Sequence record: PZ242158.1
From: a phage
Direction: 5' to 3' (one strand)
Length of the DNA: 64,000 bases
This document shows, piece after piece, positions 11,401 through 31,047 of this stretch. Within the stretch, counting starts at the first letter, position 1; every line of letters starts with the position of its first letter. Made by a program: the position numbers and the translations under genes. The notes beneath the pieces were generated by a model that saw nothing but the letters and a program-made list of their open reading frames with translations, made no database searches and was not told the origin of the DNA.

Positions 11401-14072
11401 CTTTGCATGCGAATATGGATGGTGCAAGGTATCCGTTCGACGTTCCAGTTGCCAATGGGTACAGACGTGTCGTGATGATTATTAAATGCGATCTGATCGG
11501 AAAGCAAGTTCTTGCAGAAAACGGAACATCCACACATCCTTTTGAAGTTGCTCTGCACTACCAGTTTGCAGACTCACCATATGCGGGAGATAAAAGAATC
11601 TCCGACACAGACTCTAAGCGCTGTAAGAAAGTTTTACTTGGAGCCGGGTGGTGGTGGTACGAGTTTGATTTGACAGATAAGTTCACAGATGATACCAAAA
11701 CTCTCACAGGTATCCGTCTGGACCTTGGTGAAAACATGCACAAAGCTGTTTGTGATGGCACCTACGGTGATCCTACAGTATACTTGAAGTATGTCTCTCT
11801 TGAGCATCCAGAGGATGCCGTAATCGGTCCTAAACTGAAATTGTTCGGCTCATGGATTGCCAAGGATAGGGTAGGAATGGGTAAGAAAGTGAGAGGATTC
11901 CTGATAGACGCAGGGACAGAGGACATGCTGGTTAATGCAGTGTGGCCTACGCTAGAAGGCACCGCCTACAACAATGCAGCCAGGTCTATAAATTGGTTCA
12001 ACATTCACAGGGCTATGTGGACCACTAACTGCTACTTGTGGAGAGAGCTTAACGATCAGGCCTTTGGCTTTAGTGACGGCAGAAGGATGGCGATCATTTG
12101 CTGGACAACATTGCAAAGATGTTATGACCATGACTACGAGATTGGCGGTAGAGCATGGAAAGATATCAGAGATAGGGTTATATACAATTTTGCAGACGAC
12201 AACGGTGGTGGAGCATATAACTTTGGCACAAGCAGACTCATCCATTTGAACGGATCCTCAGCCTACAAGAAAGAAGGTTACTCCGGGTCCATGATCGAGT
12301 GGGGTCTGGTGAAAGATGCTCGTGTATTGATGGGCCAGCAACTTGCTGCTGCAATAGGTCCTAGTGCAGTGCAGTCTGCTAAACCAGCGTGGTTCGATAT
12401 CCCATTATGGTCCTCTGGAACACCAGGAGCTGCTGCAATCAACCCTACCACTGGGGATCTAGAAATCTCCTGGGAAGACCTGAAGCAGGTCGGTGGTTGG
12501 GACAAAACAGGGTATCAGGTTCAATGGTGGAGGGCTGACGGATCTTTAGCCGCTGATGAGTTTGTTAAGGACAATTTCTACACCATGTCCTCTGCAAAAG
12601 CACAGCAATTGTTCGGACAGGCTACTCCGTCAACAATCACCATGTCTATGTGCTGTAAAGACAACAGAACTGGAGCTCTGGGGCCAAGGGTTGCTAAAGT
12701 TTTCTCAGGTATTAAATGGAATCTACCTGTCCAAAGTATTTCATGGAAGCAAATAGGTGATAACAAGCTGCTGGTTACCCCTGCCTGTCAGTTCAACGCA
12801 ACTCTTAACGTTGATCCTGCTGTTGCGGCAAACTCAGCTAAAGCTTCTGACTTCTCTGTGTCTAACACTGCTATGGCAGATGTGAGGAAGATTGACACGC
12901 TGAACGCCAGAATTACCTGTAAAAACACTTATGGCACATTCCAAATCATCAACAACTTCACAGATGCTGATTCTAAGGTAGTGAGGACAGCAAGCCAGAC
13001 TCTGAGTTTAGGAACTCTGGCCTATGCGGCCCTGATCACCGAGCAGTCGGCAACACTCCAAGGAGGTGGTGTAGGCAAGTCCATTGCAACACCTGTGTGG
13101 AAGCCAAATGAGTGGGTTGTGTTTGATTTGACTGTGGACTTCTCCAGCGATAATAACTGGACATGGGTAAGGAATTGTTTGTCACAATTGATGGGAGGTC
13201 CAAGCTCCGTTAGTGATAGTCACGACTCTACTGACCCGAGTGTGTTCCAGGTAGGTAAAACTCACCCAGAGACTGGAGAAACGTTGCCTGACAGGAAGTA
13301 TGCGTTGGTTTGCATCTCTTACGGGAAGGCAGATGTCACCTTCTCAGGGACACACACTTATAACGGAACCTACAACTTCTCAAGGAAGTATAGTCTCAAA
13401 GCAGGGAACATTGTAGACGAGGTTGGTGTGCTGTATAATCCAGGTAACGGCATAGGGATTGTGGGTGGTAAACTGCAGATGCAGGAACCTTCTATTACCC
13501 CTTCCAACGTATCCGGTATTAGAAAGACTTGGGAAAGTAGTAATACCAACATTGCAACAGTGGATGCTGCCACAGGGCTGGTAACATTTAAAGCTACTGG
13601 GAATGTCACCATAAAGTTTGTAGTTACTGATGATGCAGGGCGCAAAACGTCTTCAACATCTTTTACTGTCAAACAGATGGCACCACAGTGGAGAATGTGG
13701 ATAGGTACAGCAACAAACGGGGCATACCCTAATCCGGCAGGTACTTCTGGTATGAAGACTTTCTCTACAAGCAAACCGATGGAGTACGGCAGCGGTCCTA
13801 AGGTAGGGCAGATGGTGTACTTTGGTGCGTATATTCCTGAAATTATAGGGCTTCCTAGAAGTCAGCTTCAGTTGCTGTTTGGGGCTGGTGTTGACGATCT
13901 TGCCACTTTCGGGTATAGCGACAACATCGAGGCTGCAAGGAGTTCAGGATGGGTAGGGTTCAGAATGGAGTCCGGAAAGGAAGGCAGGATTCTAGGGACA
14001 GCCTCTATAGGTGTTATGTTCCCTGGTGACCAGCAGTATCGTCTAGAAGCCTACGCAACCTTTTCTCGTTAA
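8436..14072 (+). CDS. giant fibre/adhesin-like virion protein with bacterial Ig-like (BIG2) domain
   Basis: 1878-aa ORF; near C-terminus SGIRKTWESSNTNIATVDAATGLVTFKATGNVTIKFVVTDDAGRKTSSTSFTV matches the BIG2 Ig-like fold pattern; last gene of structural operon. Confidence 0.6.
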   Translation: MLPIPLLKLGRHFLDKRGGIKELAVLSYPIDNSDGTSNTVSYVNSLAILFDDGQLNITGYNRFGECRTGDLDTINYPNEAAWNVDHVWRADRAFVIRTFDNKFFYIGCTAGLIGSEAAGGNDVCVREWTPLPEQIVTGLHLDTHPERLVEVMGGVNNTVWVIAAPEDDGMLHLYGSGNNTYGSLHVDKSQHATPVKIGETSESPETGPWKNPRINCEVHDNSVIFGGPNGFWIAGYDFLRNNSKNTLVYPAEHVTLDQFKGIPVGETWKGFMCGPNGAIIATERMHKPDDQQLVNVFYGQDVWGDDTWRSLNITYTHEVIMARGYGTSGIFFNNGTKQYRGFSRNLCNDIGAQSANNSPRANFIHYRALATAKFVEQTEPVSWTESVYFQGIHREGFLGTFTVVNGKLWWSGIPRGSFAGSNNLFGGRLNSQGFTEVPENWYKNVPVDSWGVDDIFDVNGVSSVSNIYIGDTVKMKLKPQPEGATFIIDKIELVNAAGTVVTDANYQFSTNWNHGGANEVVVTQYNRNVNRRGLYSVKITYHDKHGTGRTHTTRTLNWNTIVPAYPSNGKWHTVGRNKQFHVNDTVYFGLNAAQPVVEGDTSYMVRLHRMDAGSVTYDVTQEIYDQRRTTYDNVVKTQALWEFNPNGRGGKMLQVNEQNGTSLTVHEHPDPWPDPGKPNSGARTLKIVSHDAGYFGIRWEATVRYVDGTTNNIGITLGGTSEDNSLKIAYTPRGISIDNMDVVRNGYGDVNVKVTLGEHLGGERIIMYAFDHDPRTNGTYANQAWSYLINAPEPNTKEFYYGMKRDVCKKTGTHDWIAICVKDERTAWDEPVNRWFIGIPTRSDKYVAEYIVCMGGTNLNMCWNEDVNKYSDYDYMRDYSCNLWFNQTTGYPPRQARVNPAIFTDTQVFLTKQANEVQTFKNNYDPNKWFYNCYGAYFWGPAELPDSGSCFEAATYGSDYIMGQVKKYKMIPGPETLGNAVDPYINFAALHANMDGARYPFDVPVANGYRRVVMIIKCDLIGKQVLAENGTSTHPFEVALHYQFADSPYAGDKRISDTDSKRCKKVLLGAGWWWYEFDLTDKFTDDTKTLTGIRLDLGENMHKAVCDGTYGDPTVYLKYVSLEHPEDAVIGPKLKLFGSWIAKDRVGMGKKVRGFLIDAGTEDMLVNAVWPTLEGTAYNNAARSINWFNIHRAMWTTNCYLWRELNDQAFGFSDGRRMAIICWTTLQRCYDHDYEIGGRAWKDIRDRVIYNFADDNGGGAYNFGTSRLIHLNGSSAYKKEGYSGSMIEWGLVKDARVLMGQQLAAAIGPSAVQSAKPAWFDIPLWSSGTPGAAAINPTTGDLEISWEDLKQVGGWDKTGYQVQWWRADGSLAADEFVKDNFYTMSSAKAQQLFGQATPSTITMSMCCKDNRTGALGPRVAKVFSGIKWNLPVQSISWKQIGDNKLLVTPACQFNATLNVDPAVAANSAKASDFSVSNTAMADVRKIDTLNARITCKNTYGTFQIINNFTDADSKVVRTASQTLSLGTLAYAALITEQSATLQGGGVGKSIATPVWKPNEWVVFDLTVDFSSDNNWTWVRNCLSQLMGGPSSVSDSHDSTDPSVFQVGKTHPETGETLPDRKYALVCISYGKADVTFSGTHTYNGTYNFSRKYSLKAGNIVDEVGVLYNPGNGIGIVGGKLQMQEPSITPSNVSGIRKTWESSNTNIATVDAATGLVTFKATGNVTIKFVVTDDAGRKTSSTSFTVKQMAPQWRMWIGTATNGAYPNPAGTSGMKTFSTSKPMEYGSGPKVGQMVYFGAYIPEIIGLPRSQLQLLFGAGVDDLATFGYSDNIEAARSSGWVGFRMESGKEGRILGTASIGVMFPGDQQYRLEAYATFSR

Positions 14073-14083
14073 CAAGGGGGTAA

Positions 14084-14116
14084 ATAAAAAAAGGGGCCGT
14101 TTGGCCCCTTTCTTTT
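14084..14116. terminator. bidirectional intrinsic terminator between convergent operons
   Basis: AAAAAAA + AGGGGCC-gttt-GGCCCCT (7-bp GC stem) + TTTCTTTTT; A-run on one side, T-run on the other. Confidence 0.65.
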
Positions 14117-14121
14117 TATAG

Positions 14122-14322
14122 TTAGTAATACTCCCAACATGCCCCATCTTCAGACGGCTTGACGCGCTTACCTTTATGGTCAACATAGGTATAGCCACAA
14201 CCTTCACAAATAACAGGTGCTGCATAGCCTTCCTTCCACTGATCCTCAGTGATCAATCCTTTCAGATCTCCGCAGTCACGACCAAACAACTCTTCAGAAC
14301 AGTCTTTACAAAAATCAGCCAT
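14122..14322 (-). CDS. small zinc-ribbon protein
   Basis: 66 aa with CxxC...CxxC (CKDC, CEGC) spacing. Confidence 0.4.
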   Translation of the reverse strand: MADFCKDCSEELFGRDCGDLKGLITEDQWKEGYAAPVICEGCGYTYVDHKGKRVKPSEDGACWEYY

Positions 14323-14391
14323 CTCTATCAGTCTCCATATTTAACCAATCTATATTACATATTGCCGAAGAAACAGTATTTCATTTCATCA

Positions 14392-14610
14392 TCACAGATC
14401 TCCAACAACTTCCCAAATACCCCAGTGAGCATCTATATCCTTGATAAAGTATCTTTCTCCACGGTTTGTCCACACACCTATCCCAACTTTACCATCTATC
14501 CCATTGTATACATCTGCCTCATACTCTTTGCCCGGTGTAAAGTGTACACCCATCATAAGGGCTGTTATTCCATTAGGATTTTTAAATTTAACAAATTTTA
14601 CTTTGCTCAT
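14392..14610 (-). CDS. hypothetical protein
   Basis: 72-aa ORF packed tightly with neighbours; no motif recognised. Confidence 0.35.
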   Translation of the reverse strand: MSKVKFVKFKNPNGITALMMGVHFTPGKEYEADVYNGIDGKVGIGVWTNRGERYFIKDIDAHWGIWEVVGDL

Positions 14611-14611
14611 A

Positions 14612-14941
14612 TTACTTAATCCTTGCAGTTACAGTAGCGCTATACCCCATGTAGTTATGAGACATAAAGAATGTAAGCCCTTTAAGTTCAGGATTCTTTC
14701 TAAGAAATCGTTTCAATTTTCGAATGCAATTAACACCATGATCATAGTTTGAGAAATTAAATTTAATACCCTGCTCCATCATAGTGCACACTTCTTCATG
14801 GGTATGCCATTGTCTATCGTGGTCACAAAACCAGTAACCAATACCTTCTTTTTCTTGGATATGCAATCCCCAAAATACTTTATGCATTGGATATTTTGGT
14901 TTTCTACCATGATAATGTAGTTTAATATTCACATGTGCCAT
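14612..14941 (-). CDS. hypothetical protein (His/Cys-rich)
   Basis: 109-aa ORF, stop-start abutting downstream gene; no motif recognised. Confidence 0.4.
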   Translation of the reverse strand: MAHVNIKLHYHGRKPKYPMHKVFWGLHIQEKEGIGYWFCDHDRQWHTHEEVCTMMEQGIKFNFSNYDHGVNCIRKLKRFLRKNPELKGLTFFMSHNYMGYSATVTARIK

Positions 14942-15110
14942 TTTTTTGTTACTCCGTTCTGTATCTGTGATAATGAGAATAGCAAACTGGGGTGTGTGCT
15001 GTCAACAACATTTTTAAGCGTTTTGGGGAAGTTTTTTGAAAGGTGGGTGTAATCACAAGAGAGGGTGGAGTTATTGAAGGCACAGGCCTCTTTTGAGGCC
15101 TTAAAATCGA

Positions 15111-15491
15111 TTATGACACTTTGACGTAGCGCTCTGACAGAGCTGGAAAGCCAAAAGCAGTACCTATACTACCGTATGCTACCCACCATTGAAGTTCATC
15201 GTGACACCATTTTCCGATCAGGAAGGTGCTGGGGTAGCGGGTCAGTATTTTGGCATAAGCTTTAGGGTCTGCATCTTCTGGGATAATGATACTTGGAACA
15301 TCTTTGTTATGGCCACAGCAGCAGTTTAGAGTTTTCAATCCTGCCGCCCATAGACTCATGATAGGCTTAGCCATGCACTTATCAAGGCACACACGTTTTT
15401 TGCCGTCACGGAGCTTTTTAGGCACATCAACGATAACATTTTGATGCTTGGCACCTTTCACTTTCCAATTATAGGATTTACACTTGCACAT
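15111..15491 (-). CDS. hypothetical Cys-rich protein
   Basis: 126 aa with several Cys clusters (CKCK, CLDKC, NCCCGHNKD); possible metal binding. Confidence 0.4.
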   Translation of the reverse strand: MCKCKSYNWKVKGAKHQNVIVDVPKKLRDGKKRVCLDKCMAKPIMSLWAAGLKTLNCCCGHNKDVPSIIIPEDADPKAYAKILTRYPSTFLIGKWCHDELQWWVAYGSIGTAFGFPALSERYVKVS

Positions 15492-15688
15492 TTAATCAGT
15501 CTCCATCTAGAAAGCAATACTTTACTTAAAATCTTTGTCACCTATTACGATTGCACGAATCCACTCATTGTGATGTTCAATGGCGGTAAGGTGTAACATA
15601 ATGCAGTGATTGTCATTACCAAACACGGTGCGGTAAGCTTTAGCAGCACCATGATATAACTTCCACATCAGGTAATGATATCTTCGCC

Positions 15689-16168
15689 TCATGGCTCTTT
15701 CTCCGGTTCAGGATCTGGGTAATCTTCAATAATAAAGGGCCATCCGTTCCGCTTAGCCTCAGACTTGTACTCAATCTCCTTCATTGCAAACTCTAACTGA
15801 TTTTTAGCCGGAATACATGCCGGAGAATCATCAACCCAGATATCTGGGTAGATATCAAACTGCGCCAGGTAGGCTGCCTTCTGAACACCGCCAGTATAAA
15901 ACACACCAACATCGAGCTCCTTGCGCCAATACTCAATATCCACATTGTCTTGAGTAATGAATCGGAAAGTCACAAGGTATACTGTCCACCCCTCCTTCTT
16001 CAGGTCCCTGATCAGGCGGGAGAAGATGAAAGGGCTCGCATTAAACGTTCCATCAAAGTCAATGGCAATGATGTGCGTGCCGTGGCGAGTCTCATATGGA
16101 TTGCTTGTGGTAAGATTGCTGTAGTTAAAAGGGACCTCTTCCCCGCAGTAGCTGTAGTCCATATTCAC
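15689..16168 (-). CDS. HAD-superfamily phosphatase (possible nucleotidase)
   Basis: HAD motif I IAIDFDGTF (DxDGT), motif II-like VYLVT, motif IV-like DIWVDDSP. Confidence 0.5.
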   Translation of the reverse strand: MNMDYSYCGEEVPFNYSNLTTSNPYETRHGTHIIAIDFDGTFNASPFIFSRLIRDLKKEGWTVYLVTFRFITQDNVDIEYWRKELDVGVFYTGGVQKAAYLAQFDIYPDIWVDDSPACIPAKNQLEFAMKEIEYKSEAKRNGWPFIIEDYPDPEPEKEP

Positions 16169-16440
16169 ACCTTCTCGTTGATAAATTTACGGGCGGTTTG
16201 GTGAGTTGTTTCTGCTGTCTTCAGAATAATATTAATTTTATCGTCAAGATCATTCATCTCAGCAGTTAATTCAGGAATCTCTCCGGCATGCATAGTGAAA
16301 TCATACATAGACATGCCAAGAATCTCATTGATTCGGCGGTTGCATTCTGCAGCACGCTGGTTCATTTTCCAAGCTAACACCAGAGCCTCTTGCGTAGCCT
16401 CCAGTGCAAAGTCTAATACGTCAGCTTCTTCTTTCGTCAT
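16165..16440 (-). CDS. hypothetical protein
   Basis: 91-aa ORF overlapping neighbour by 4 nt. Confidence 0.35.
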   Translation of the reverse strand: MTKEEADVLDFALEATQEALVLAWKMNQRAAECNRRINEILGMSMYDFTMHAGEIPELTAEMNDLDDKINIILKTAETTHQTARKFINEKV

Positions 16441-16495
16441 CTCAGTCTCTCTTGTTGTATTGTTGGTAGGTGCATGAACACCTTATATCTCACTT

Positions 16496-17062
16496 TTATT
16501 CAAACTGCAATAGTAAGTCCACCACCGCGCTAGGTCTGTCAACAAATTCCCCAGGTCCACATGCCCACAGAGGGTATCCGTCTACATACCGCCAAATCCA
16601 ACCTGCAGTGTGTAGCTCAAGCAGGGCAGTACCGTCCTTACTGTCAACCACTCTTTCCCACAGTGTTGGGCAGCGAAGCTTGAGAATCGGATCACCTCCC
16701 TTATACCCGTCCATGTAGATACCCATTGCAAAGTTCAGCATCATCTTTTTGTGCACTGATCTCTTACTGAGAGTGCTCATCACTTCCTCTTTGTGAATGT
16801 TTGTAAGCTTCTCTTTGGCTACCCGCAGATCGTTGCAACCATTGTTCAGCAGATCTTCCAGACACTTGATCCGAAGGTCGTGAATGTCTTTGTCGTGTAC
16901 CGTTGGCACAGGGTCGTAGCGGTATAGCACTGTTGATACAAGGTTGCTCGGGTGTGGGTCTGACAGCAACCCATAACCCCAATACTCTTCTGTATCTGAA
17001 AGGACAAGACACCCAATGTCTCTGTCAAGCTTTCCTGTGTTGTAAGCCACATTGACCGCCAT
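16496..17062 (-). CDS. hypothetical protein
   Basis: 188-aa ORF; no motif recognised. Confidence 0.4.
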   Translation of the reverse strand: MAVNVAYNTGKLDRDIGCLVLSDTEEYWGYGLLSDPHPSNLVSTVLYRYDPVPTVHDKDIHDLRIKCLEDLLNNGCNDLRVAKEKLTNIHKEEVMSTLSKRSVHKKMMLNFAMGIYMDGYKGGDPILKLRCPTLWERVVDSKDGTALLELHTAGWIWRYVDGYPLWACGPGEFVDRPSAVVDLLLQFE

Positions 17063-17064
17063 GA

Positions 17065-17310
17065 CTATAGCTCCACTAACAAAGTGCTTTCAAAGTGCCG
17101 TTCATGCAGACCGTTGTAAGGGACCACTTCTACAACGCCATCACGGACATATGGGGCCATCATGGTGGTATAATCTCCAAACGGGTTGGTATTGTCACTA
17201 ACCACAACCACCTTCTGCCCTTCCTTGGCAGAGTGCCAAATAGATCTGCACTTCATCAGGTGTTCGAGAGCTCCAGGTAAAATTTTGTTACGTTCTTTAC
17301 GGGTCTTCAT
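17065..17310 (-). CDS. hypothetical protein
   Basis: 81-aa ORF overlapping upstream gene by 4 nt. Confidence 0.3.
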   Translation of the reverse strand: MKTRKERNKILPGALEHLMKCRSIWHSAKEGQKVVVVSDNTNPFGDYTTMMAPYVRDGVVEVVPYNGLHERHFESTLLVEL

Positions 17311-17756
17311 AATAGGTATAGCTCCTTATGAAAGTAGTCTTTTAATTTCTCACTGAGAAACCTCTTGATACCTTCCTCTAAAGTGTTTTCGATGTAGTCC
17401 AGCTTAACTGCTTCGATGGACATATCATAGATCGCCAGCTCTAAGCTGTCAAGTCCCATCATAGCATGAACCATAAGATTTTCATCTTCAGATACATTCA
17501 GGGGACTTCCTATAACATCTGTAGGTAGGATAGTTTCCCAATTATTCTGGGGGGTAGTTCTCCCACCCTCCACTTTACGGCGCAGTTCGAAGGTGTTCTT
17601 AGTGTAGAACACTTCATAAGAAACGATACGACTATCGCTCTCATAATAAACGAAGTTCAGGTAGGAGCCTAGCCGCAGTCGGCAAACTTCTACCCCAAAC
17701 CATTGTTTCTTATAAGAATTCAGGCTAATGCTGTCGCATTCACGCTTGCTCAACAC
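17307..17756 (-). CDS. hypothetical protein
   Basis: 149-aa ORF; no motif recognised. Confidence 0.4.
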   Translation of the reverse strand: MLSKRECDSISLNSYKKQWFGVEVCRLRLGSYLNFVYYESDSRIVSYEVFYTKNTFELRRKVEGGRTTPQNNWETILPTDVIGSPLNVSEDENLMVHAMMGLDSLELAIYDMSIEAVKLDYIENTLEEGIKRFLSEKLKDYFHKELYLL

Positions 17757-17772
17757 GGCTATCTCCTTTTTG

Positions 17773-18006
17773 TTAATCTTCGTAAATCAGGATCTCTGCT
17801 TTAGGTTTTCGTGCTTTCAGGTCCAGCTCTATCCAGTGCACCATAGCTGTTTCAAGAAAAACAGCCTGTATGCATCCGTCTTCAGCGTGCCCTACCAGCA
17901 TAACAAGATCTTCACCTTCATCATCTGCATCACGAACATACAAAATCTCTCCAGATTCAAAGTCTTTCACAACCTGATTGCTGGATAATTTACGAATTTT
18001 TGCCAT
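17773..18006 (-). CDS. hypothetical protein
   Basis: 77-aa ORF. Confidence 0.35.
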   Translation of the reverse strand: MAKIRKLSSNQVVKDFESGEILYVRDADDEGEDLVMLVGHAEDGCIQAVFLETAMVHWIELDLKARKPKAEILIYED

Positions 18007-18007
18007 A

Positions 18008-18271
18008 TCAGAAACCCTCTAAAAAGCTCTTGTAGAAAATAATCTCAGTATCCACACCAGTCACGATCTTGTCGTTCCTGATTTCATCTGTAAGATAGGT
18101 GTCAAAACGCAGCACCTGTGTGGTATTGTCACACATCCACTCGGCTGTGACCATGGCAAAAATCTTAGCATCTTCATTATCCGGTGTGAATGTTACCACC
18201 TCACCGCATTTAAACTTTTCGATAGGTTGCGTGTTAGCTTTTGGTTCTGCAATAGTGATTTTTGTAGTCAT
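18008..18271 (-). CDS. hypothetical protein
   Basis: 87-aa ORF. Confidence 0.35.
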   Translation of the reverse strand: MTTKITIAEPKANTQPIEKFKCGEVVTFTPDNEDAKIFAMVTAEWMCDNTTQVLRFDTYLTDEIRNDKIVTGVDTEIIFYKSFLEGF

Positions 18272-18537
18272 TACTCTTCCTTCATAGTTTCACCAAATAC
18301 TTCGATACGAGCGTCAAGCTCTGTTGCTTTCAGCTCCCCAACAAAATCTTTTAGTTCTTTCTCGTCCAGATCGTAAGCCCACACACAAGAAGAACATGCA
18401 GATTTCACAATCAGCAGCGTAGATACACGACCTGACTCTGTGATCATGCTCACAATGGTTCCCACAGGGAACGTGTTGATAGCTTTTTTAACTGGGCGTT
18501 CAGCTTTAATTACTACCTCTGTTGCCATAAATAACAT
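18271..18537 (-). CDS. hypothetical protein
   Basis: 88-aa ORF, stop-start overlap with neighbour. Confidence 0.35.
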   Translation of the reverse strand: MLFMATEVVIKAERPVKKAINTFPVGTIVSMITESGRVSTLLIVKSACSSCVWAYDLDEKELKDFVGELKATELDARIEVFGETMKEE

Positions 18538-18543
18538 CCTCTC

Positions 18544-20004
18544 TTACTTAGCGTACTCGATTAATTCCACAGTTTTACCAAAGCTAGGGATATAATTTTT
18601 ATTATACCCTTCGGTGAGAACCCATAAAGTATCGTACTTTTTCCACTTGTTGTCAACAGCCTTTTGTTCAAAGTTATGCTCAAAGTATAGGTCGGTCAGG
18701 ACGATGACATCTTTTGCATTTGGTATGTTGGCATCTAGATACTCGAACACGCAAGCAGCTGTTGTGCCCCATGTTGAGTGGACCTCATAGTTGATCATTT
18801 CGTCTATGTTGCCGCGAGTATATACTTTAACCTCTCCGACTTCAGTTGACCAACAGAACATTGTAACCTTAAACTCTTTATACAGATTGCACAATCCGGT
18901 GATTTCATTGAACATTTTCTTTAAAGTTCTTTGAGAGATTGAGCCAGAAACGTCTAAAGCTACCACAATATCTATGGTGTTTTCCGGATTACGACCAGGA
19001 ACAATAACGTGCTGGTTCTTGTTTATAGCCCCAACTTTTCGCATTGTGCTGGTCAAAGACCCAGATCGGCGACCAGGTTTTCTGTAGGTCAGTTCAGCCT
19101 TTCGTTTAGACAATATGCGTTGCTTAATAATGTCTATATAGTTGATTACAGGCTTACCTCTGTTCTTGACGAACTCACGCACCGCCTCAGGGCAACGACC
19201 TCCGGAAGCTTGCATTGCTGCCTCCAGCATGTCACCAGAGTCCTGCATGGCCTGATCTTTATCAGATTGGCTGATTACAGGTTGTGGCTGATCATACCCC
19301 ATAGCCTTTCCAAGATCATCACTGGTGCCACCGTTCCCACTCATGTGATCATCGGTTTGTCGCTTATCCCCTTGAGAGTTCTCACCTTTACCGCTCTTAC
19401 TTTTACCGTTATTCTGATCTCTTTGCTTATCAAGAACTGCATAAACGTTCTCAGCAATCCATCCATGAAACTTCATGTCGCAGTAGCAGCTGGCTAAGAA
19501 GCCAAAAGGCTTACCTTCCACAAACGTAGTGCTTTTCCCCTTCGGGAAGAAAACACAAGGAGGCTTACTAAAGTCAACCACAAGACCTGTGTTGATAACG
19601 TGATCACAAGCAATATTGAACAGTTCCGGCTCAAAACTTTTACCACGGACCAGGTGATCACAGATAATATGCCCCACCTCATGTGACAGAAGAAAGGCCA
19701 CCTCCTTCACAGATTTGGGGGAATAGAAAACCTCAGCCATCCCAAACTGTTCGTCAGTTAGAGAAGCCTTAAGAATAGCCCTGCGTTCATCAGCCAATCC
19801 CATAATGAACTCAGGACTGTAATAGATGCGTTTATGGTCGGTTGCCATGGTAGAGCACCATGTGTGGTTTTCTACAAACTGCAACCCTGACAGTAGCGTG
19901 CCATAAAACGGCAGCTTTTCAAGGAGATACATACGTGCAGCCTGCAACATTCTCAGGGCATCATCTTTCTGTGAGGCAATGATTTCTGAACTTCTGCTAT
20001 CCAT
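18544..20004 (-). CDS. VWA-domain protein with N-terminal HExxH metallopeptidase-like motif (CobT/DUF2201-like partner of MoxR-type ATPases)
   Basis: SHEVGHIICDH in N-terminal half; MIDAS-like VVALDVSGSI in C-terminal half; start moved to ATG 20004 (GGAG SD) because the TTG at 20025 lies inside an upstream hairpin. Confidence 0.6.
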   Translation of the reverse strand: MDSRSSEIIASQKDDALRMLQAARMYLLEKLPFYGTLLSGLQFVENHTWCSTMATDHKRIYYSPEFIMGLADERRAILKASLTDEQFGMAEVFYSPKSVKEVAFLLSHEVGHIICDHLVRGKSFEPELFNIACDHVINTGLVVDFSKPPCVFFPKGKSTTFVEGKPFGFLASCYCDMKFHGWIAENVYAVLDKQRDQNNGKSKSGKGENSQGDKRQTDDHMSGNGGTSDDLGKAMGYDQPQPVISQSDKDQAMQDSGDMLEAAMQASGGRCPEAVREFVKNRGKPVINYIDIIKQRILSKRKAELTYRKPGRRSGSLTSTMRKVGAINKNQHVIVPGRNPENTIDIVVALDVSGSISQRTLKKMFNEITGLCNLYKEFKVTMFCWSTEVGEVKVYTRGNIDEMINYEVHSTWGTTAACVFEYLDANIPNAKDVIVLTDLYFEHNFEQKAVDNKWKKYDTLWVLTEGYNKNYIPSFGKTVELIEYAK

Positions 20005-20016
20005 TAAAACTCCAGA

Positions 20017-20033
20017 AGGGGCCAATGGCCCCT
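20017..20033 (-). terminator. weak hairpin terminator after HNH gene
   Basis: AGGGGCC-aat-GGCCCCT hairpin; downstream on the - strand TCTGGAGTTTT, only moderately U-rich. Confidence 0.3.
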
Positions 20034-20037
20034 GTCA

Positions 20038-21081
20038 TTATTTAACGTGTTTGAAAATACCTGCCAACTCGGTCATTGTCATGCGGGTGGTCTTCATAAG
20101 ATCTGTCATAGCTTTCTCCATAATTGGAGATACTACCATAAAGTTACCTTTGGTGAAACCTTTATTCCAGTCGGTCACTAACAGGGGCTTAAGTCCAGCT
20201 CCGAGACGTTCACCAGTTAAAGCACAGCATTTGCGAACATACGAACTCTTAAATTGGCTGAACGACAGATCAACTTTCATACCTGCATCGTAGAACGTTT
20301 GACAATAGAAAGTGTAAGCCTTAGCAACCTCAACATCATCAGGCAGTGCAGGAACCTCTTCTGCAATCTCCTCTTCGACCTCCTGAGGCTCTTTTTCCTC
20401 TTCAGAGTTCTGTTCTCCAATTTCTTCTGTCACAGTTTCGTTTACGATGTCTGAAATGTGTTTGTTGGCTGCACGATCAGCCATGAAATTTTTAAAGTCC
20501 TGCATTGGTGACATATCTTCTTCCTCTTCGTCAAAAAGTGCTAGTTTATCTTCTTCTGTCCCGTATTGCAAGATGAAATCTTCAAAAGTATAATCACCTT
20601 TCAATTTCTCCATACGCTCTTCGCTCAGGTGAAGCATCATCTGCTGGACAATTTTTCGATCAGTTTTGTCTTTTATCAATATTGCAGTCTTTTTATCTAC
20701 CAGACAGTCTTTCAGAGCGTTGCACCTCAACCCTACCACACAACAATTGTCAATTGCGTAAGGACCTTCATCATCTATCCGCTCCAGAGATGGGTAGAAA
20801 GGATTCCCCAGCCCGTTTTCATCTGTGTGCATGTCGAAAGGTATAAGAGTATAGTCGCATACCCCCTCTCCTAAAAGTTTTTTACCAAATAGGAGGTATT
20901 CTTCCCATGACAGGTTGAACTCTATATCTCGTTTCCGTGCATTATTTTGTTTGCGTCTGTATTTTTTGAGCAGGCGCTCTAACTCTTCTGGTGTATAATA
21001 TTTTTCAAGATTCATGAGTTGTCTCTCGTGCTCTATAGGTGAAGAAATCTTATCAAGTGCCTCGACAGATGTCAACCTCAA
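20038..21081 (-). CDS. free-standing HNH-family endonuclease with acidic C-terminal extension
   Basis: SLERIDDEGPYAIDNCCVVGLRCNALK (xRID...N...N..K HNH pattern); start uncertain (alternative ATG at 21015). Confidence 0.5.
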   Translation of the reverse strand: MRLTSVEALDKISSPIEHERQLMNLEKYYTPEELERLLKKYRRKQNNARKRDIEFNLSWEEYLLFGKKLLGEGVCDYTLIPFDMHTDENGLGNPFYPSLERIDDEGPYAIDNCCVVGLRCNALKDCLVDKKTAILIKDKTDRKIVQQMMLHLSEERMEKLKGDYTFEDFILQYGTEEDKLALFDEEEEDMSPMQDFKNFMADRAANKHISDIVNETVTEEIGEQNSEEEKEPQEVEEEIAEEVPALPDDVEVAKAYTFYCQTFYDAGMKVDLSFSQFKSSYVRKCCALTGERLGAGLKPLLVTDWNKGFTKGNFMVVSPIMEKAMTDLMKTTRMTMTELAGIFKHVK

Positions 21082-21088
21082 AAACGTG

Positions 21089-21117
21089 TTGACTTTACTA
21101 TAAATCTACGATATAGT
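21089..21117 (+). promoter_or_regulatory. sigma70-like promoter for the + strand early/replication operon
   Basis: TTGACT, 17-nt spacer, TATAGT; in the divergent intergenic region. Confidence 0.5.
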
Positions 21118-21157
21118 GCACCCATTCGAAAGAAAACGAACACAGGAGCACTTAATC

Positions 21158-22057
21158 ATGGCAAATCTTAACAGCTTTAGCACTCGGTGGAAACAAGATA
21201 TCACAACCAATCTCTCAGCAGGTGATATCCTTTCTGCAATTTACGAGGCTTTGGATGATAAAGCTACTTCAAAATCGGTTTGTACCAACCCGCTAATTCC
21301 TATAGTAATGAAGGTTATTGAGCGTAGGCTGGTATCCGGATCTGATAAGTGGACATATCTGGATAATGGAGGCCACACTTACTCCAACGGCTATGTCGAT
21401 ATAAAAGTAGAATATGCGGTATCATATCGCCGGAGCGGCTCTGTAACTTTCAACTTTTCTGGAGGTTTCCGATCTCTGGCAACTTCACCTTTTGTTTCCT
21501 CAGAGGAGAGGTTTGAACTTCCGTTCCTTTGGATGATGGCTAACGCGACAGGCAAAACCCCTGTAAGCATTCGCGTAAAATACAACTACAACGGATCTAG
21601 TAAGATCTATGCCGAGAGTGTCTCAGCAAGTTTTTATTTTGTGATGGGGGATGGAATCCTCAAACATATAAAGATGTGTGATATGCATGATGTTATAAAT
21701 GAAGTGACTGATAAGAATGTTCTGGTGAAGGATCTCAACAATTTTTATACACCGGGAGACTATTACGTCAACCGTCCACTGTGCATCTTTAATGCTGCAC
21801 ACCCTTTAGGTGAGTATTTGATTGCCAATAGTGATATTGCCAATAACCGCTTCGAGGTAGCAAGAGTACAGAATGAGGTATTGACATCTTGCAAGAGCGG
21901 TGATAAGTTCACCGAAGAAGAGATGGGCGTTTTAGAAATGATGGGATATAAGTGTAGCCTTTGGGTAGATGAGGTGTTTAATGACGGCATCTATGGACAG
22001 GATATTTACCCGTTAAAGAAGTATACTGATTCCAGTTTAATTTACGCGGAGATTTGA
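21158..22057 (+). CDS. hypothetical protein
   Basis: Start moved to ATG 21158 (MANLNSF, SD ACAGGAG) because the tracked start at 21116 overlaps the promoter -10. Confidence 0.45.
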   Translation: MANLNSFSTRWKQDITTNLSAGDILSAIYEALDDKATSKSVCTNPLIPIVMKVIERRLVSGSDKWTYLDNGGHTYSNGYVDIKVEYAVSYRRSGSVTFNFSGGFRSLATSPFVSSEERFELPFLWMMANATGKTPVSIRVKYNYNGSSKIYAESVSASFYFVMGDGILKHIKMCDMHDVINEVTDKNVLVKDLNNFYTPGDYYVNRPLCIFNAAHPLGEYLIANSDIANNRFEVARVQNEVLTSCKSGDKFTEEEMGVLEMMGYKCSLWVDEVFNDGIYGQDIYPLKKYTDSSLIYAEI

Positions 22058-25244: not shown

Positions 25245-25271
25245 CCCCGCTTCGGCGGGGATTTTCTATTT
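25245..25271 (+). terminator. intrinsic terminator
   Basis: CCCCGC-ttcg-GCGGGG (6-bp stem) followed by ATTTTCTATTT. Confidence 0.6.
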
Positions 25272-25280
25272 GGAGTTATT

Positions 25281-25781
25281 GTGAAAATTAAGATCTTTGC
25301 TATTATTTTGAGCGCATTTTTATCGCTGCCTGTTGTTGCAGCACCAAAACAAAAAGTATATCATACTTGCAAGCCCTCAGATACTAAGGAAAACATTCTG
25401 GCATGCAATATCTACAGGGAGGCTAGAGGGGATGGCACGATGGGTATGCTGGCATCAGGGTTTGCCACACTAAACAGGAAATCTCACCCCAAATACCCAG
25501 ACACTATAAGAAAGATTGTCTACCAACCTAACCAGTTTTCGTGGACAAACCACGGCAAAATTTTTAAGGTGACAGAAAAAGATTCATGGGATCACGCTAA
25601 AAGTCTTGCAAAGATGCTTCTAAAGGTCTATAATAACAACCATGTTGCATACATGGCTATGGACATAACAGGTGGAGCAACACACTACCATACAACCAAA
25701 GTACGACCGAAATGGGCAAAAAAGATGCAGAGGACAGCTCAATTCGGGAGTCATATCTACTACAAGGAGCGCAATAAATGA
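25281..25781 (+). CDS. secreted cell-wall hydrolase, SleB/CwlJ (Hydrolase_2) type
   Basis: N-terminal signal-peptide-like MKIKIFAIILSAFLSLPVVAAP; Hydrolase_2-like motifs YREARGDG, ATLNR, QPNQFSW; GTG start with GGAG SD. Confidence 0.55.
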   Translation: MKIKIFAIILSAFLSLPVVAAPKQKVYHTCKPSDTKENILACNIYREARGDGTMGMLASGFATLNRKSHPKYPDTIRKIVYQPNQFSWTNHGKIFKVTEKDSWDHAKSLAKMLLKVYNNNHVAYMAMDITGGATHYHTTKVRPKWAKKMQRTAQFGSHIYYKERNK

Positions 25782-27760
25782 TTGTAAACAGTAATGAAAC
25801 TAAAGCAGTACTAACCGGAAATATGGAGGTCACCAGGGGCTCAATTTCTCTTAACAAAGAGACTTTTGGGCTAATCATTAAAGGGATTTACGAAGATAAG
25901 GTGCTGGCAAGCTGCCGTGAACCAATCTTCAATGCTGTGGACTCTCATGTTGAGTCTGGACGGGGTGATGTGCCGATCATTATTCACTCTCCTACAGACC
26001 TTGAACCATACTTCTTTGTGCAGGACGTTGGATTGGGCATGTCAGAAGAGATGGTCCGCAACACTTTCATGAACCTCGGTGAGTCAACCAAGCGCAACAG
26101 CAACGCTCTGGTTGGCAATAAAGGTGTTGGTTCAAAGGCTCCGTTCAGCATGGTGGACACTTTCGATGTTATCAGTGTGCACAATGGTATTGAAAGCACA
26201 TATCTATTATTCTTGGATCAGGGTATCCCAAACGTTACCAAGATCCGCGAGCGGAAGACTGAAGAGCACAACGGGGTAAAAGTTCAGTTCCATGTTAAGA
26301 AAGAGCATGTCCTGAAATATCGCACTGCTATTGCATCGTGCTTACGCTATGCGAAGTTTCCGTTCATCGTCACCGATCCAATGACCAGTAAGATGTTAGA
26401 AGGTGACAAGGTTGAGGCACAGTATCATTACGAGAAGGATGGCTGGAAAATGACCATCCTGAAAGGTTATACCAGTTCTGATGAGAGCCGTGTTGTGATG
26501 GGTCACCAACCTTACCGCTCCAAGTTCCTGGAGACATTGACCGATTACCCTGCAATCTGCGTAGAGATCCCTATCGGGGATTGCAATATTAACCCTGGGC
26601 GTGAATGGACCATAGAGGGCCATGACGACGGTGGATTCCAGGATCGCCTGGAGGCATTTGTCAAAGAAGGTATACGTCTTCGCGGGGCAGAAGTTGTTGC
26701 AGAACTGGAGACGGCAAAAACCTCCGCAGAAGCACGTGAAATGATGAAGAATAGTGGGGTGTTCGGACACATCTTCGGCAAAAACTTTATGTGGAACCGT
26801 TGGGAAGAAACAGGGCTTGGAGACTTAGGCGATTGTGAAATTTTCGCTGGCGGCTTAAATAAAGGCCGCATAGGCTATGCTCGTTATGGAAAGTCAGAGT
26901 TTTTGCGGGGAGTCTATTTAGTATTTAACGACGGAGACGGCAAATATAACCGAAATAAGTGTAACTACTTAAGCGAGATCACCGGACGCAACGTTTTCTA
27001 TTGCCGTAACACGGATCTGGTGGAAGAGATTAAAGAAGCGGCACACCACCCGTTCTTTGCAGATACGGTCAAATTGTTATCAGAGCTCCCTCGCCGACCT
27101 GTCAAGAAAGGTGAAACAAAAACTCGTTATGAGCCAGGTTATTGGGTTAAAAAACTTGAGAAGGATGGTTACTTTCGCCGTGAGCGTATTACTAAGGCAG
27201 AGTTCCGGAAGATTAAACACTGCATCCCTTATGAGGGTGATATCCAACGTGGAAGTTGTTGGCTGGGACAGCTGAGTAACATCTACCAGCAAAATTATGA
27301 CCGTGTGCGTGCGGCACTTCAGATTCCTGAAGGGGAAGATCTGTACCTGGTATCAGAATCTCGTCTGCTTTGGACTGATCCTGATTGCCAGTATGTTACA
27401 GAGAAGAGTGTGGAACATTTGTTGAAAGAGGATGCTTGGAAATTCTTACTGACTCGCGCAGCAAATGAAACTTCATATGACAGCCTGTATAGACAATTGG
27501 GGAAAATTATCCCCATGCAAGATTTTGGAAATTATCGGCCACATTTCCACAAGTGGGAAGGTAACACCGCGTGGAAGCATAGTGAGCTAAATCATCGTGC
27601 CAAAATCTTAATCGCCAACCGAGTCAAATGCGGGAAGGCCTATATTGCAAGATTGGAAAAGAAATATCCACTTTTGAAGCATGTAGGCTTGAAATATTGG
27701 GACACCCCTGCTATGATTGAATACCGTGAGCTGATTGATACAAAGAATAACACCAAATAA
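25778..27760 (+). CDS. GHKL (HATPase_c) ATPase-domain protein, rIIA-like
   Basis: VQDVGLGMSEEMV...LGESTKRNSNALVGNKGVGSKAPFSM matches GHKL ATP-lid/G-box pattern; 660 aa; followed by a second large gene as in rIIA-rIIB pairs. Confidence 0.5.
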   Translation: MIVNSNETKAVLTGNMEVTRGSISLNKETFGLIIKGIYEDKVLASCREPIFNAVDSHVESGRGDVPIIIHSPTDLEPYFFVQDVGLGMSEEMVRNTFMNLGESTKRNSNALVGNKGVGSKAPFSMVDTFDVISVHNGIESTYLLFLDQGIPNVTKIRERKTEEHNGVKVQFHVKKEHVLKYRTAIASCLRYAKFPFIVTDPMTSKMLEGDKVEAQYHYEKDGWKMTILKGYTSSDESRVVMGHQPYRSKFLETLTDYPAICVEIPIGDCNINPGREWTIEGHDDGGFQDRLEAFVKEGIRLRGAEVVAELETAKTSAEAREMMKNSGVFGHIFGKNFMWNRWEETGLGDLGDCEIFAGGLNKGRIGYARYGKSEFLRGVYLVFNDGDGKYNRNKCNYLSEITGRNVFYCRNTDLVEEIKEAAHHPFFADTVKLLSELPRRPVKKGETKTRYEPGYWVKKLEKDGYFRRERITKAEFRKIKHCIPYEGDIQRGSCWLGQLSNIYQQNYDRVRAALQIPEGEDLYLVSESRLLWTDPDCQYVTEKSVEHLLKEDAWKFLLTRAANETSYDSLYRQLGKIIPMQDFGNYRPHFHKWEGNTAWKHSELNHRAKILIANRVKCGKAYIARLEKKYPLLKHVGLKYWDTPAMIEYRELIDTKNNTK

Positions 27761-27770
27761 GGAGACAGTT

Positions 27771-28976
27771 ATGATTTTCATCTACGAACACTTCAAAACT
27801 CGTAAAGAAGCACGCGACCGCCGTGCAGAACTTGAGAAGAAGGGTTTCACATGTGCTATTGAGAAAGGCGACACAACCTGGACACTGGCAGTGGGTGCCC
27901 CAGAGTTGTTCGATCCTGACCGTGACAGCGTCTGCTACACCCGTGAGGATTTTGAAACCCGCGAAGAAGCCCGTTTATTTCGATACGGTCTGGAAGATAA
28001 CGGTAAGTACGCCATGATCTTAGATTTAGGCGAAGGTTCCGTTAAACGTTGGGGCGTGGTATACCCACTGTGTGTTGTTCACGGTGTGGGGTTCACTGGA
28101 GTAGCAATCAAGTCAGAAGAACCTTTAGTAGAAGTCAAAGATCCGGTGCTGGAAGTGGTGAGTAGTGTGTCTCAGCAACAGACTCGAAGCATCGAACCTT
28201 TGGTAGTTATTTGCGGGGAACTCCTCCAGATCACCTGCAACGAAGGCATTTTTGAAATTCGCCGCAGCGAAAGTGAGGAAGTTTACCAGAAAGTCTTCGA
28301 CCATATCTCTGTTCAGGAATATGATGAGGCAATTGGTGAAATCCTTGTCTGGCTGGAACGCAAGAATGAGTTCACCACACTTGCAGACAACCTGATCATG
28401 AAAGATGGTAAGCTCTACTACTACGGTGTAGAGATGCGATCCACCATTGCAAAGAAAATTGAGAAAGATTATGCAGACGGAACACTGGATGACCGCTATG
28501 TGAAATTCCTCGTTCGCCTGCTACGCAATCCTTCTGCAAAATCTGTAAACATGCTCTACGACTTTATGCAGGCCAACGATATCCAGATTGCAGAAGATGG
28601 TCGAATCATTTGCTACAAAGGGGTTCAGTTTAACGGCAGCAAGTGGGTGGATTGGCACAGTGGTAAAGTCCCACAATACCAAGGTGCTTTTGTATCCATG
28701 CCTCGTAACTTTGTAGAGGATGATCCTGAAGCTGCGTGCTCCTATGGCTTACACTGCGCCAGCAAAGAGTATGCAAAGAGCTACGGCACTGTAATGACTG
28801 TTATGGTTGACCCTGCAGATGTGGTTAGTGTGCCATACCAACACAATAGCGCTAAGTGCCGTGCATGCCGCTATGAGATTGTGGTAGCTCCGGAAGCACG
28901 CAAAGATGGAGACCCTATTGAATATGTAGTTGATCGTGACGGTAACACTATCGACATTCTTTACGAGGAGGCGTAA
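27771..28976 (+). CDS. hypothetical protein, possible rIIB-like partner
   Basis: 402-aa ORF immediately after the GHKL protein; assignment by gene order only; start at ATG 27771 after AGGAGA. Confidence 0.3.
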   Translation: MIFIYEHFKTRKEARDRRAELEKKGFTCAIEKGDTTWTLAVGAPELFDPDRDSVCYTREDFETREEARLFRYGLEDNGKYAMILDLGEGSVKRWGVVYPLCVVHGVGFTGVAIKSEEPLVEVKDPVLEVVSSVSQQQTRSIEPLVVICGELLQITCNEGIFEIRRSESEEVYQKVFDHISVQEYDEAIGEILVWLERKNEFTTLADNLIMKDGKLYYYGVEMRSTIAKKIEKDYADGTLDDRYVKFLVRLLRNPSAKSVNMLYDFMQANDIQIAEDGRIICYKGVQFNGSKWVDWHSGKVPQYQGAFVSMPRNFVEDDPEAACSYGLHCASKEYAKSYGTVMTVMVDPADVVSVPYQHNSAKCRACRYEIVVAPEARKDGDPIEYVVDRDGNTIDILYEEA

Positions 28977-30346
28977 TGGAAAAAGGGCAGTATGATGTAG
29001 GCACAGATGCTGCCCTCGTTGCAATCATGAGTGGTGAGAATGTCTTCGTTTCAGGACCCGCAGGTTGTGGGAAGACGTACCTCATCAACATGATCCAGTC
29101 AATGTATGGAGACTCTTGCATAACGGTTGCCCCGACAGGGGTAGCCGCTTTAAACGTTAATGGAGCAACAGCACACCGAACCTTCGATCTTGCAGCAGGT
29201 GTGAGCATGGAGTCAGACTGGACCGCAATAAGGGCAAAAACAGCAAAGCCTTTGAAAAGCAAGGCATTTACCATCCTAATTATCGATGAAATCTCTATGA
29301 TCCGTGCTGATAAGTTTATAGAGATGGATAGGAAACTCCGCTTCCTTCGAAAAAATGACAAACCTTTCGGAGGCATACAGGTCATATTGTTTGGCGATTT
29401 TTACCAGGCCCCTCCTGTTGTCTCTTCTATGGAGAAGGAGGCCTATTTCAACTTCTACCATACGGACCTGTGTTGCTATACCGAATCTTGGAAAGAGCTT
29501 GACCTCCACAACATAGCCCTAATAGATCAGTTCCGACAGGAGTCTATTCGATTTGCCACAATGCTCAACTGTGTTCGTGAGGGTCGTCGCATAAAAGAGG
29601 TTGTAGCAGAACTTAATGCTCGCTGTTACAAAGGTGGTGTACCAACAGATGCTCTCACAATTTGCGCCACCAACAAACAAGCAGAGGAAGTGAACAGAAG
29701 GTTCTATGATGCCATCAACGCCCCAGAGAAGGTATACACTGGTGAAATGAAGGGTAAGTTTCCCTCCACCCTGCCAGTTGAGCAGGAGATGAAGTTGAAA
29801 ATTGGCATGAAAGTTATGATAACCGCCAACGATGTTGACCCGACGCACAAAGTACCTTATTATGTTAACGGAACACGTGCCACAATTGTTAAATTTAAGA
29901 ACAAGGCAGTGGTGGTAGAGCTTGAAGATGGAACACAGGTTGACATAGAGCAAAGGTTGTGGGAGAATAACGAGTATAAGCCATCTCAGAGATACAACAT
30001 TGCAGAAAGGAAGATGGAGAAGTTTATAGAGAGGGTAGTGATTGGGTCATACAGGCAACTTCCTCTGAAATCTGGGTATGCCGTAACATCTCATAAAAGT
30101 CAAGGACTTACGCTAGATTGTTACAACCTGGACCTTGGAAAGAACGGAGCTTTCTCTCCTGGGATGACGTATGTTGCTTTGAGTCGGGTTAAGACAATAC
30201 AAGGAATAAACTTGTTGCGTCCACTAAGAGAAGTTGACATTATTGTTGACCCGCGAGTCGTAGAGTTTTACAATACAACATTCCCTGACTTAGACAAAAT
30301 TGTCAGGAAAGATTTTGAAACCAGAGCAGAAGAGGGGGACGTATGA
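28976..30346 (+). CDS. SF1B DNA helicase (Dda/Pif1/RecD-like)
   Basis: Walker A VFVSGPAGCGKTY, motif Ia APTGVAALNV, Walker B LIIDEISMI, motif III LFGDFYQAPPV, motif V TSHKSQGLTLD, motif VI VALSRVKT. Confidence 0.8.
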   Translation: MEKGQYDVGTDAALVAIMSGENVFVSGPAGCGKTYLINMIQSMYGDSCITVAPTGVAALNVNGATAHRTFDLAAGVSMESDWTAIRAKTAKPLKSKAFTILIIDEISMIRADKFIEMDRKLRFLRKNDKPFGGIQVILFGDFYQAPPVVSSMEKEAYFNFYHTDLCCYTESWKELDLHNIALIDQFRQESIRFATMLNCVREGRRIKEVVAELNARCYKGGVPTDALTICATNKQAEEVNRRFYDAINAPEKVYTGEMKGKFPSTLPVEQEMKLKIGMKVMITANDVDPTHKVPYYVNGTRATIVKFKNKAVVVELEDGTQVDIEQRLWENNEYKPSQRYNIAERKMEKFIERVVIGSYRQLPLKSGYAVTSHKSQGLTLDCYNLDLGKNGAFSPGMTYVALSRVKTIQGINLLRPLREVDIIVDPRVVEFYNTTFPDLDKIVRKDFETRAEEGDV

Positions 30347-30684
30347 GTTTGTGGAGAAATATCGTTAACTACGTGTGCGGCAATCCAACTCCTGAAGAGA
30401 AGGATGTTGTGATTCACGATTTTACTAAAAGATCTCGTGAAAAAGATCTACTGCTAACAAAGGTGACTGATAAAGATCCTGCAGTAGGGGACTGGGCAGG
30501 TTTTGCGTTTACATCGGACAAATACACCTTTAACAAAGGTGACTACCTTGTTGTGGATTTTAACGAAGACATTGAGGGTGCTGAACCTTACTATCAAACC
30601 CTTATTGTTGCAGGGTGTGTTGATCTCTCTGCAGGCATGCACAGTTTGATTCTTTTTGAGCTTGACTCTGAAGACCTTGAGTAG
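30343..30684 (+). CDS. hypothetical protein
   Basis: 113-aa ORF overlapping helicase stop. Confidence 0.35.
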   Translation: MSLWRNIVNYVCGNPTPEEKDVVIHDFTKRSREKDLLLTKVTDKDPAVGDWAGFAFTSDKYTFNKGDYLVVDFNEDIEGAEPYYQTLIVAGCVDLSAGMHSLILFELDSEDLE

Positions 30685-30744
30685 TAAGATGTGAGTATAA
30701 AGGGGAGGCACTCCTCCCCACAAAAACTAAGGAAGCACTAAACG

Positions 30745-31047
30745 ATGAAACGTTATAAACCATACACTTTTGAAATCGATTTCGAACTTGACGATATGTT
30801 TACTGTGGAAGCTCAGGCAGTTGTCCAGTTGCCAGACTCGGAGTGCCGTGACTCTGATGTTGACTATTACGGGTTTAGACAAATTACCGATGTGCGTGTT
30901 TACCACAACGGTGAAGAGGTGGACTTCCACCAACTGCCAAACGATATGCGCCACTCAATTTACAAACGTGCAGCCCGTGAACTAGAGTCCTATCTGGATG
31001 CAGCGACGACAGCAGCTGCATTTGCTGAAGAAGTGGGAGGTTTCTGA
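30745..31047 (+). CDS. hypothetical protein
   Basis: 100-aa ORF, SD AAGGAAG. Confidence 0.4.
   Translation: MKRYKPYTFEIDFELDDMFTVEAQAVVQLPDSECRDSDVDYYGFRQITDVRVYHNGEEVDFHQLPNDMRHSIYKRAARELESYLDAATTAAAFAEEVGGF

Follow-up and report, generated by a model that had tools for sequence, protein, structure and literature searches.

Two adjacent genes at positions 25778-28976 of a 64,000-nucleotide (nt) stretch of phage DNA (record PZ242158.1, hereafter the window) very probably form the orthologous rIIA-rIIB counter-defence module of an rV5-like coliphage of the genus Vequintavirus. The listing of open reading frames places rIIA at 25778-27760 on the plus strand (660 amino acids (aa), with a TAA stop at 27758-27760). 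It is followed after 10 nt on the same strand by rIIB at 27771-28976, for which the listing was combined with a reading of the junction. The product of rIIB has 401 aa; the 402 aa given in an earlier first-pass annotation of this DNA include the stop codon. The resemblance in gene order to rIIA-rIIB of T4 noted there is borne out at the level of the proteins, both of which are homologous to their T4 namesakes by PHROG profiles and by BLASTP. Because both have hundreds to thousands of homologues, the identification of the gene pair is far beyond chance.

The 660-aa protein matches phrog_612 with E 2.4e-124, its residues 1-657 aligning with positions 1-723 of the 725 in the profile. T4 rIIA matches the same profile with E 9e-250. 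Direct comparison of the two proteins by BLASTP gives 28% identity over the first 198 aa (E 4e-21). When a profile built from 28 rIIA homologues was aligned with T4 rIIA using hhalign, residues 1-301 were matched to T4 residues 1-305 over 296 columns (probability 99.9, E 1.3e-37).

The N-terminal part of rIIA contains a GHKL (Bergerat-fold) ATPase domain (approximately residues 27-190; 25856-26347, plus strand). The sole Pfam match of the protein above its cut-off, HATPase_c_3, lies within it (residues 50-147; 35.5 bits against a cut-off of 25). The two GHKL signatures picked out in the first-pass annotation were located at residues 83-88 (DVGLGM) and 113-121 (GNKGVGSKA). Conservation was examined in an alignment of the 28 homologues, which extend down to 19% identity. 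All three nucleotide-binding motifs are invariant at their key positions, i.e. E48, N52 and D55 of motif I (ExxxNxxD, within REPIFNAVD), D83, G85 and G87 of motif II (DxGxG), and G113, G116 and G118 of motif III (GxxGxG). S103, T104 and K105 are also invariant. The ATPase domain is followed by a second domain resembling a transducer or middle domain (approximately residues 196-301; 26363-26680, plus strand) that carries the motif PIGDxxxNPGREW, and in which Y246, R275 and E276 are invariant. Thus rIIA is a GHKL ATPase of the GyrB/Hsp90/MutL class followed by a transducer-like domain; its ATP-binding and catalytic motifs are intact, and ATPase activity is predicted on this basis. The C-terminal half (approximately residues 302-660; 26681-27757, plus strand) is mixed alpha/beta and then helical, and is specific to the family. 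It is covered by phrog_612 and is modelled by AlphaFold2 with a predicted local distance difference test (pLDDT) score mostly of 80-93; it gave no significant BLASTP match to T4 rIIA and no Pfam domain.

GHKL ATPases are found in several kinds of protein, and rIIA might be a DNA-metabolism enzyme related to topoisomerases, MutL or MORC that serves replication or recombination, together with the neighbouring helicase, instead of counter-defence. We consider this highly improbable. In comparisons of fold the best matches were the Hsp90 chaperones TRAP1 (16.0) and GRP94 (15.8) and not topoisomerases; yeast topoisomerase II (14.7), the T6 topoisomerase II ATPase (14.5), MutL (13.7) and MORC2 (12.2) ranked below these. 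The similarity to the Hsp90, MutL and type II topoisomerase families is at the level of fold only, and membership of any of them is not supported. No Toprim, MutL C-terminal or Hsp90 C-terminal domain was detected in the Pfam scan of rIIA, and the protein lacks a DNA-gate or endonuclease domain. The GHKL models of NCBIfam were below threshold, with HSP90 scoring 17.5 bits against a cut-off of 455, and the sacsin and restriction-enzyme GHKL models falling far below their cut-offs. A sequence search of the PDB with rIIA found TRAP1 at just E 0.11. The profiles place rIIA with T4 rIIA at E 1e-124, while HSP90 models have E values above 1e-3. Moreover, the summary of a study in related phages (PMC11879866, discussed below) reports that knock-down had no effect on a host lacking Rex. 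Assignment of the GHKL protein to the rIIA family, as opposed to MutL, Hsp90 or a topoisomerase, is therefore upheld by a profile that it shares with T4 rIIA, and profiles also place its partner with rIIB.

For that partner the first-pass annotation had relied on synteny alone. In fact there is real similarity. rIIB matches phrog_609 over residues 133-376 with E 1.4e-61, and T4 rIIB matches the same profile with E 6.6e-111. BLASTP against T4 rIIB gives 37% identity over 204 C-terminal aa with E 4e-39, a stronger direct match to T4 than that obtained with rIIA. A database protein identical to that of the window (P0001) carries PF26926. NCBIfam has no family for rIIB; Pfam matches to 'Influenza C M1' and 'DUF7003' were below their cut-offs and were judged to be due to chance.

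The structural model of rIIB has a mean pLDDT of 72, rising to 80-95 in the C-terminal part, and the protein divides into three sections. The N-terminal module (27771-28079, plus strand) comprises two beta-alpha-beta-beta repeats (residues 3-42 and 53-103) that are SPOR-like and are absent from T4 rIIB. The repeat is detectable within the sequence, where residues 5-34 align with 58-88 with a local alignment score of 45 (z = 6.1; reached in 1 of 2000 shuffles), and is retained in the alignment of the Vequintavirus-like clade. The match to SPOR (PF05036, about 76 positions) covers half of the profile with a borderline score. A low-confidence linker (about residues 104-143; 28080-28199, plus strand) has a pLDDT of 24-29, residues 101-141 being disordered in the model; its alignment columns are rich in indels and its length varies between clades. 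The conserved core (approximately residues 144-397; 28200-28961, plus strand) is mixed alpha/beta, and is the part in common with T4 rIIB. In the first-pass annotation the protein was described as being of unknown fold. This no longer applies to the N-terminal part, for which the tandem repeat can now be described; it stands for the C-terminal core, which has no solved structural relative. In the PDB copy searched there was no solved structure of rIIA or rIIB, and neither protein had a sequence match better than E 0.09. In BFVD, rIIB had 31 significant structural matches, of which those with names were called rIIB or uncharacterized, apart from one 'Transposase'.

The rIIB core is widespread. 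It was found by tblastn in 2,878 phage records, including T4-like, Felix-O1-like, N4-like, Streptomyces and jumbo Vibrio phages, yet just 131 of these cover at least 80% of the rIIB of the window. The C-terminal core is the family-defining part of rIIB, and the N-terminal module seems to be interchangeable between phage lineages while the core is conserved. In T4 rIIB the corresponding place is occupied by a helix-turn-helix (HTH)-like segment (residues 7-50; HTH_7 and HTH_28 at E ~5e-5, just under their cut-offs). This is a feature of T4 that does not define the family, and was not found in the rIIB of the window. The occurrence of SPOR-like repeats at the start of rV5-type rIIB, in place of the helix-turn-helix of T4, is a mildly new point. 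A rearranged relative was also observed. This is a 498-aa database protein (P0005, from a single 3.3-kb contig) in which TPR repeats are joined to an rIIB C-terminal part 99% identical to that of the window, and which may have arisen by chimeric assembly or by rearrangement of a phage gene.

Several observations connect the two proteins. Adjacency of rIIA and rIIB is seen across very distant phages. The phrog_609 profile has 1055 positions and matches rIIA-type sequence at 19-310 in addition to rIIB at 751-1049, because a natural rIIA-rIIB fusion exists. This is a 1049-aa 'RIIA-RIIB membrane-associated' protein of phage RB43 (BFVD Q56C47), which contains the rIIB core (Foldseek E 1.1e-16); its name and length point to an rIIA part as well. 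Thus in RB43 a single polypeptide corresponds to what in the window are separate genes 10 nt apart. The fusion provides Rosetta-stone evidence from which we infer a physical complex of rIIA and rIIB. A further annotation of 'rIIA-rIIB', in FL20, was rejected as a fusion, since it is an ordinary 330-aa rIIB.

The start of rIIB at ATG 27771 is preceded by a Shine-Dalgarno sequence AGGAGA (27760-27765, plus strand), read in the sequence, that ends 5 nt upstream, and the GenBank record of phage slur16 uses the same start. An in-frame TTG at 27735 was dropped as a start; a gene beginning there would overlap rIIA at its 3' end, and nothing supports this choice.

As regards the function of the pair, mutations in rIIA or rIIB make T4 subject to exclusion by lambda RexAB, which wild-type T-even phages escape (PMC8594841); the same paper calls the rII locus 'long-known yet poorly understood'. 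RexAB of lambda acts in abortive infection by depolarising the membrane. As summarized in a 2025 study (PMC11879866), knock-down of RIIA or RIIB by dCas13d was performed in phages T4, MM02, EdH4, SUSP1 and N4; this reduced plating on E. coli expressing RexAB, while plating in the absence of Rex was unchanged. EdH4 is a Vequintavirus in which the rIIA-rIIB locus is 95.3% identical to that of the window at the nucleotide level over all 3,199 nt, with the flanking genes also shared. Therefore, to the extent given in that summary, the plating test that had been proposed in the first-pass annotation has effectively been done for the genus.

A mechanism can be proposed on this basis. rIIA and rIIB would be produced together early in infection and would work as one complex. 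By analogy with its relatives in fold, rIIA may act as an ATP-driven dimerising clamp or switch, with the conserved core of rIIB serving in the complex as partner or effector. The ATP-driven rIIA dimer together with rIIB might then block either the activation of Rex-type abortive-infection systems or their membrane-depolarising output. Rex-type sensors or channels would thereby be kept from collapsing the membrane potential, so that the infected cell could go on making phage. There may be a cost, in that rIIB could be sensed by other defences. RIIB of T6 is toxic when present alone, and triggers a bacterial gasdermin/CARD defence (10.1101/2023.05.28.542683). PADLOC found no meaningful similarity of either protein of the pair to defence-system proteins.

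A number of points weigh against our interpretation of the locus. The phenotypic evidence comes from relatives and not from this phage, and the result for EdH4 is contained in a summary sentence that covers five phages. For any rII pair, ATP hydrolysis, dimerisation, binding of rIIA to rIIB and association with the membrane are all inferred properties. No transmembrane helix or signal peptide was predicted in either rIIA or rIIB, and there is no hydrophobic segment that would account for membrane association; the highest mean Kyte-Doolittle values over 19 aa are 0.84 for rIIA and 1.69 for rIIB, in a scan that covers hydrophobic segments, peripheral association not being judgeable from sequence. 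The rIIB segment with the value of 1.69 follows the second N-terminal repeat, and related clades are not hydrophobic there. Lastly, the N-terminal module of rIIB is unlike that of T4, so that the targets could differ.

This last point can be taken further. The pair might indeed serve in counter-defence, with another abortive-infection system of a prophage or island as the main target in rV5-like phages. The activity against RexAB would then be incidental, and the rIIB N-terminal module would set the range of targets. We regard this as possible, though we do not favour it. It would fit the exchange of the N-terminal module between T4 and the window, and the small number of phage records in which most of the window protein is covered. 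Orthologues of RIIA and RIIB in phage Bas37 are among the top-significance fitness genes in a comparison of uropathogenic clinical isolates with K-12 (10.1101/2025.11.20.689424), and the same question is posed by the authors of PMC11879866. On the other hand, the summary of that study states that divergent rII pairs with less than 40% mutual identity, one of them from a Vequintavirus, all countered lambda RexAB, and no alternative target has been identified. A more specific idea is that rIIB is modular, with anti-Rex activity residing in the C-terminal core and swappable N-terminal modules tuning the site of action or the defences that are evaded or triggered. The rV5-type module would then target differently from that of T4, for example an envelope or division-site partner and not DNA. 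We put this forward as a speculation that is rather unlikely to be correct as it stands.

We return to a counter-defence module directed against Rex-type systems as the preferred reading, and consider the genes around it. The region 25281-30684 is densely packed, with successive gaps between genes of -4, +10, -1 and -4 nt, in the order SleB-like hydrolase, rIIA, rIIB, Dda/Pif1-like helicase, and then an open reading frame of 113 aa. The SleB-like cell-wall hydrolase (25281-25781, plus strand; Pfam Hydrolase_2, E 1.6e-19) lies upstream of rIIA, its stop overlapping the rIIA start by 4 nt. Its N-terminus (MKIKIFAIILSAFLSLPVVAAP) resembles a signal peptide, and in some records it is named endolysin. 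A GC-rich terminator-like hairpin (25245-25260) is situated just 5' of the hydrolase gene, which appears to be co-transcribed with the rII genes. Downstream, a Dda/Pif1-like superfamily 1 helicase (28976-30346, plus strand; Pfam PIF1, E 1.1e-32; phrog_325, E 8.5e-112) begins with an overlap of 1 nt with the stop of rIIB.

The position of the hydrolase gene raises the question of whether the pair is a true lysis-timing module that operates with this secreted enzyme, in keeping with the label 'lysis inhibitor' that PHROGs and RefSeq attach to both proteins. The overlap with the rIIA start and the apparent single transcription unit following the hairpin would be consistent with such a role, as would the weak resemblance of the rIIB N-terminus to SPOR, a peptidoglycan-binding fold. 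We nevertheless think it very unlikely. The name derives from the rapid-lysis plaque phenotype of T4, which according to a note in the T4 record depends on prophage genes of the host. Because rIIB lacks a signal peptide (its N-terminus is MIFIYEHFKTRKEARDRR), a periplasmic role in binding peptidoglycan is unlikely, and the SPOR match amounts to half a profile at a borderline score. The summary of PMC11879866, in addition, reports no knock-down phenotype in the absence of Rex.

Judged from its sequence, the source of the DNA is an rV5-like E. coli phage of the genus Vequintavirus. A megablast search with 25281-30346 matched 121 phage records, the best being Escherichia phage slur16 (99.0% identity over 100% of the query), and the top matches are all rV5-like Vequintavirus phages. 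Phage rV5 has an 'rIIB protector' (DQ832317) with a sequence 100% identical to that of the rIIB of the window, and rIIA is annotated as RIIA in slur16, APECc02 and rV5. Dozens of GenBank records already label the pair, as rIIA/rIIB, 'RIIA/RIIB lysis inhibitor' or 'membrane integrity protector', and the junction of rIIA and rIIB is conventionally taken as the point of opening in GenBank records of the genus, several of which (rV5, FFH2, Murica and JES2013 among them) thereby follow T4. The rII pair here is thus already known; these are textbook genes that are annotated in the genus, and the anti-RexAB role has been tested in the congeneric EdH4.

Some database entries related to this DNA are anomalous. 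Sixteen GenBank records of 'Campylobacter phage' (MG0656xx, with C. jejuni as the host) are ~97% identical to this rV5-like DNA; these are probably mislabelled, or derive from contaminating coliphages. In Escherichia phage BP9 (PP488543) just 89% of the query is matched at the rII locus, and one of the features annotated there is an 'IS2 insertion element repressor InsA', suggestive of an IS2 insertion at or close to rIIB of this phage.

In scans of the window, promoter-like sites were near expectation (21 against a shuffle mean of 16.3), while terminator-like sites were somewhat numerous (14 against a mean of 8.3, with a standard deviation of 2.8), the hairpin at 25245-25260 being the only convincing one. 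ARAGORN found no tRNA genes within the 64,000 nt. Vequintaviruses are reported to carry several tRNA genes, and therefore the tRNA cluster lies outside the window. A block of genes on the minus strand is marked by the GC skew, which switches sign at ~14000-22000.

The locus adds nothing unique on the biochemistry of rII. It does offer two leads on mechanism. The invariant ATPase motifs of rIIA and the R275-E276 pair of its second domain could be mutated, and the N-terminus of rIIB is swappable and differs between T4-like and rV5-like phages.

Set beside the GHL-class GHKL ATPases (i.e. Hsp90, TRAP1 and GRP94, the type IIA and IIB topoisomerases, MutL and MORC), rIIA has 10-18% identity and no family-level match in sequence. 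It is without the client-binding, Toprim and endonuclease domains of these proteins, and its C-terminal 350 aa are specific to rIIA.

A further comparison is with T4, which shares with the window the order of rIIA followed by rIIB on one strand, and membership of phrog_612 and phrog_609. The proteins of T4 have 725 aa (rIIA, NP_049616) and 312 aa (rIIB, NP_049889). The rIIA proteins are homologous over the N-terminal 300 aa, comprising the GHKL and second domains, while the C-terminal halves have no detectable pairwise similarity. The rIIB proteins share the C-terminal ~200 aa; that of the window is 89 aa longer, having its repeats and linker in place of the HTH-like segment. The neighbours are also different, with topoisomerase gene 60 and denB flanking the T4 genes in place of the SleB-like hydrolase and the Dda/Pif1-like helicase.

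By contrast, the relationship to the rV5-like phages is extremely close. In slur16 the rII genes are annotated RIIA/RIIB and arranged as in the window, the rII locus has 98.7% nucleotide identity, and the flanking genes are shared. A difference is encountered further downstream, where slur16 has a 1.3-kb methyltransferase gene (slur16 9466-10791) between open reading frames of 113 and 100 aa that in the window are separated by a gap of 60 nt (30684-30745); this is a methyltransferase indel between near-identical phages. Within the locus itself the rII pairs of rV5, slur16 and EdH4 are essentially identical to that of the window, with no substantial difference.

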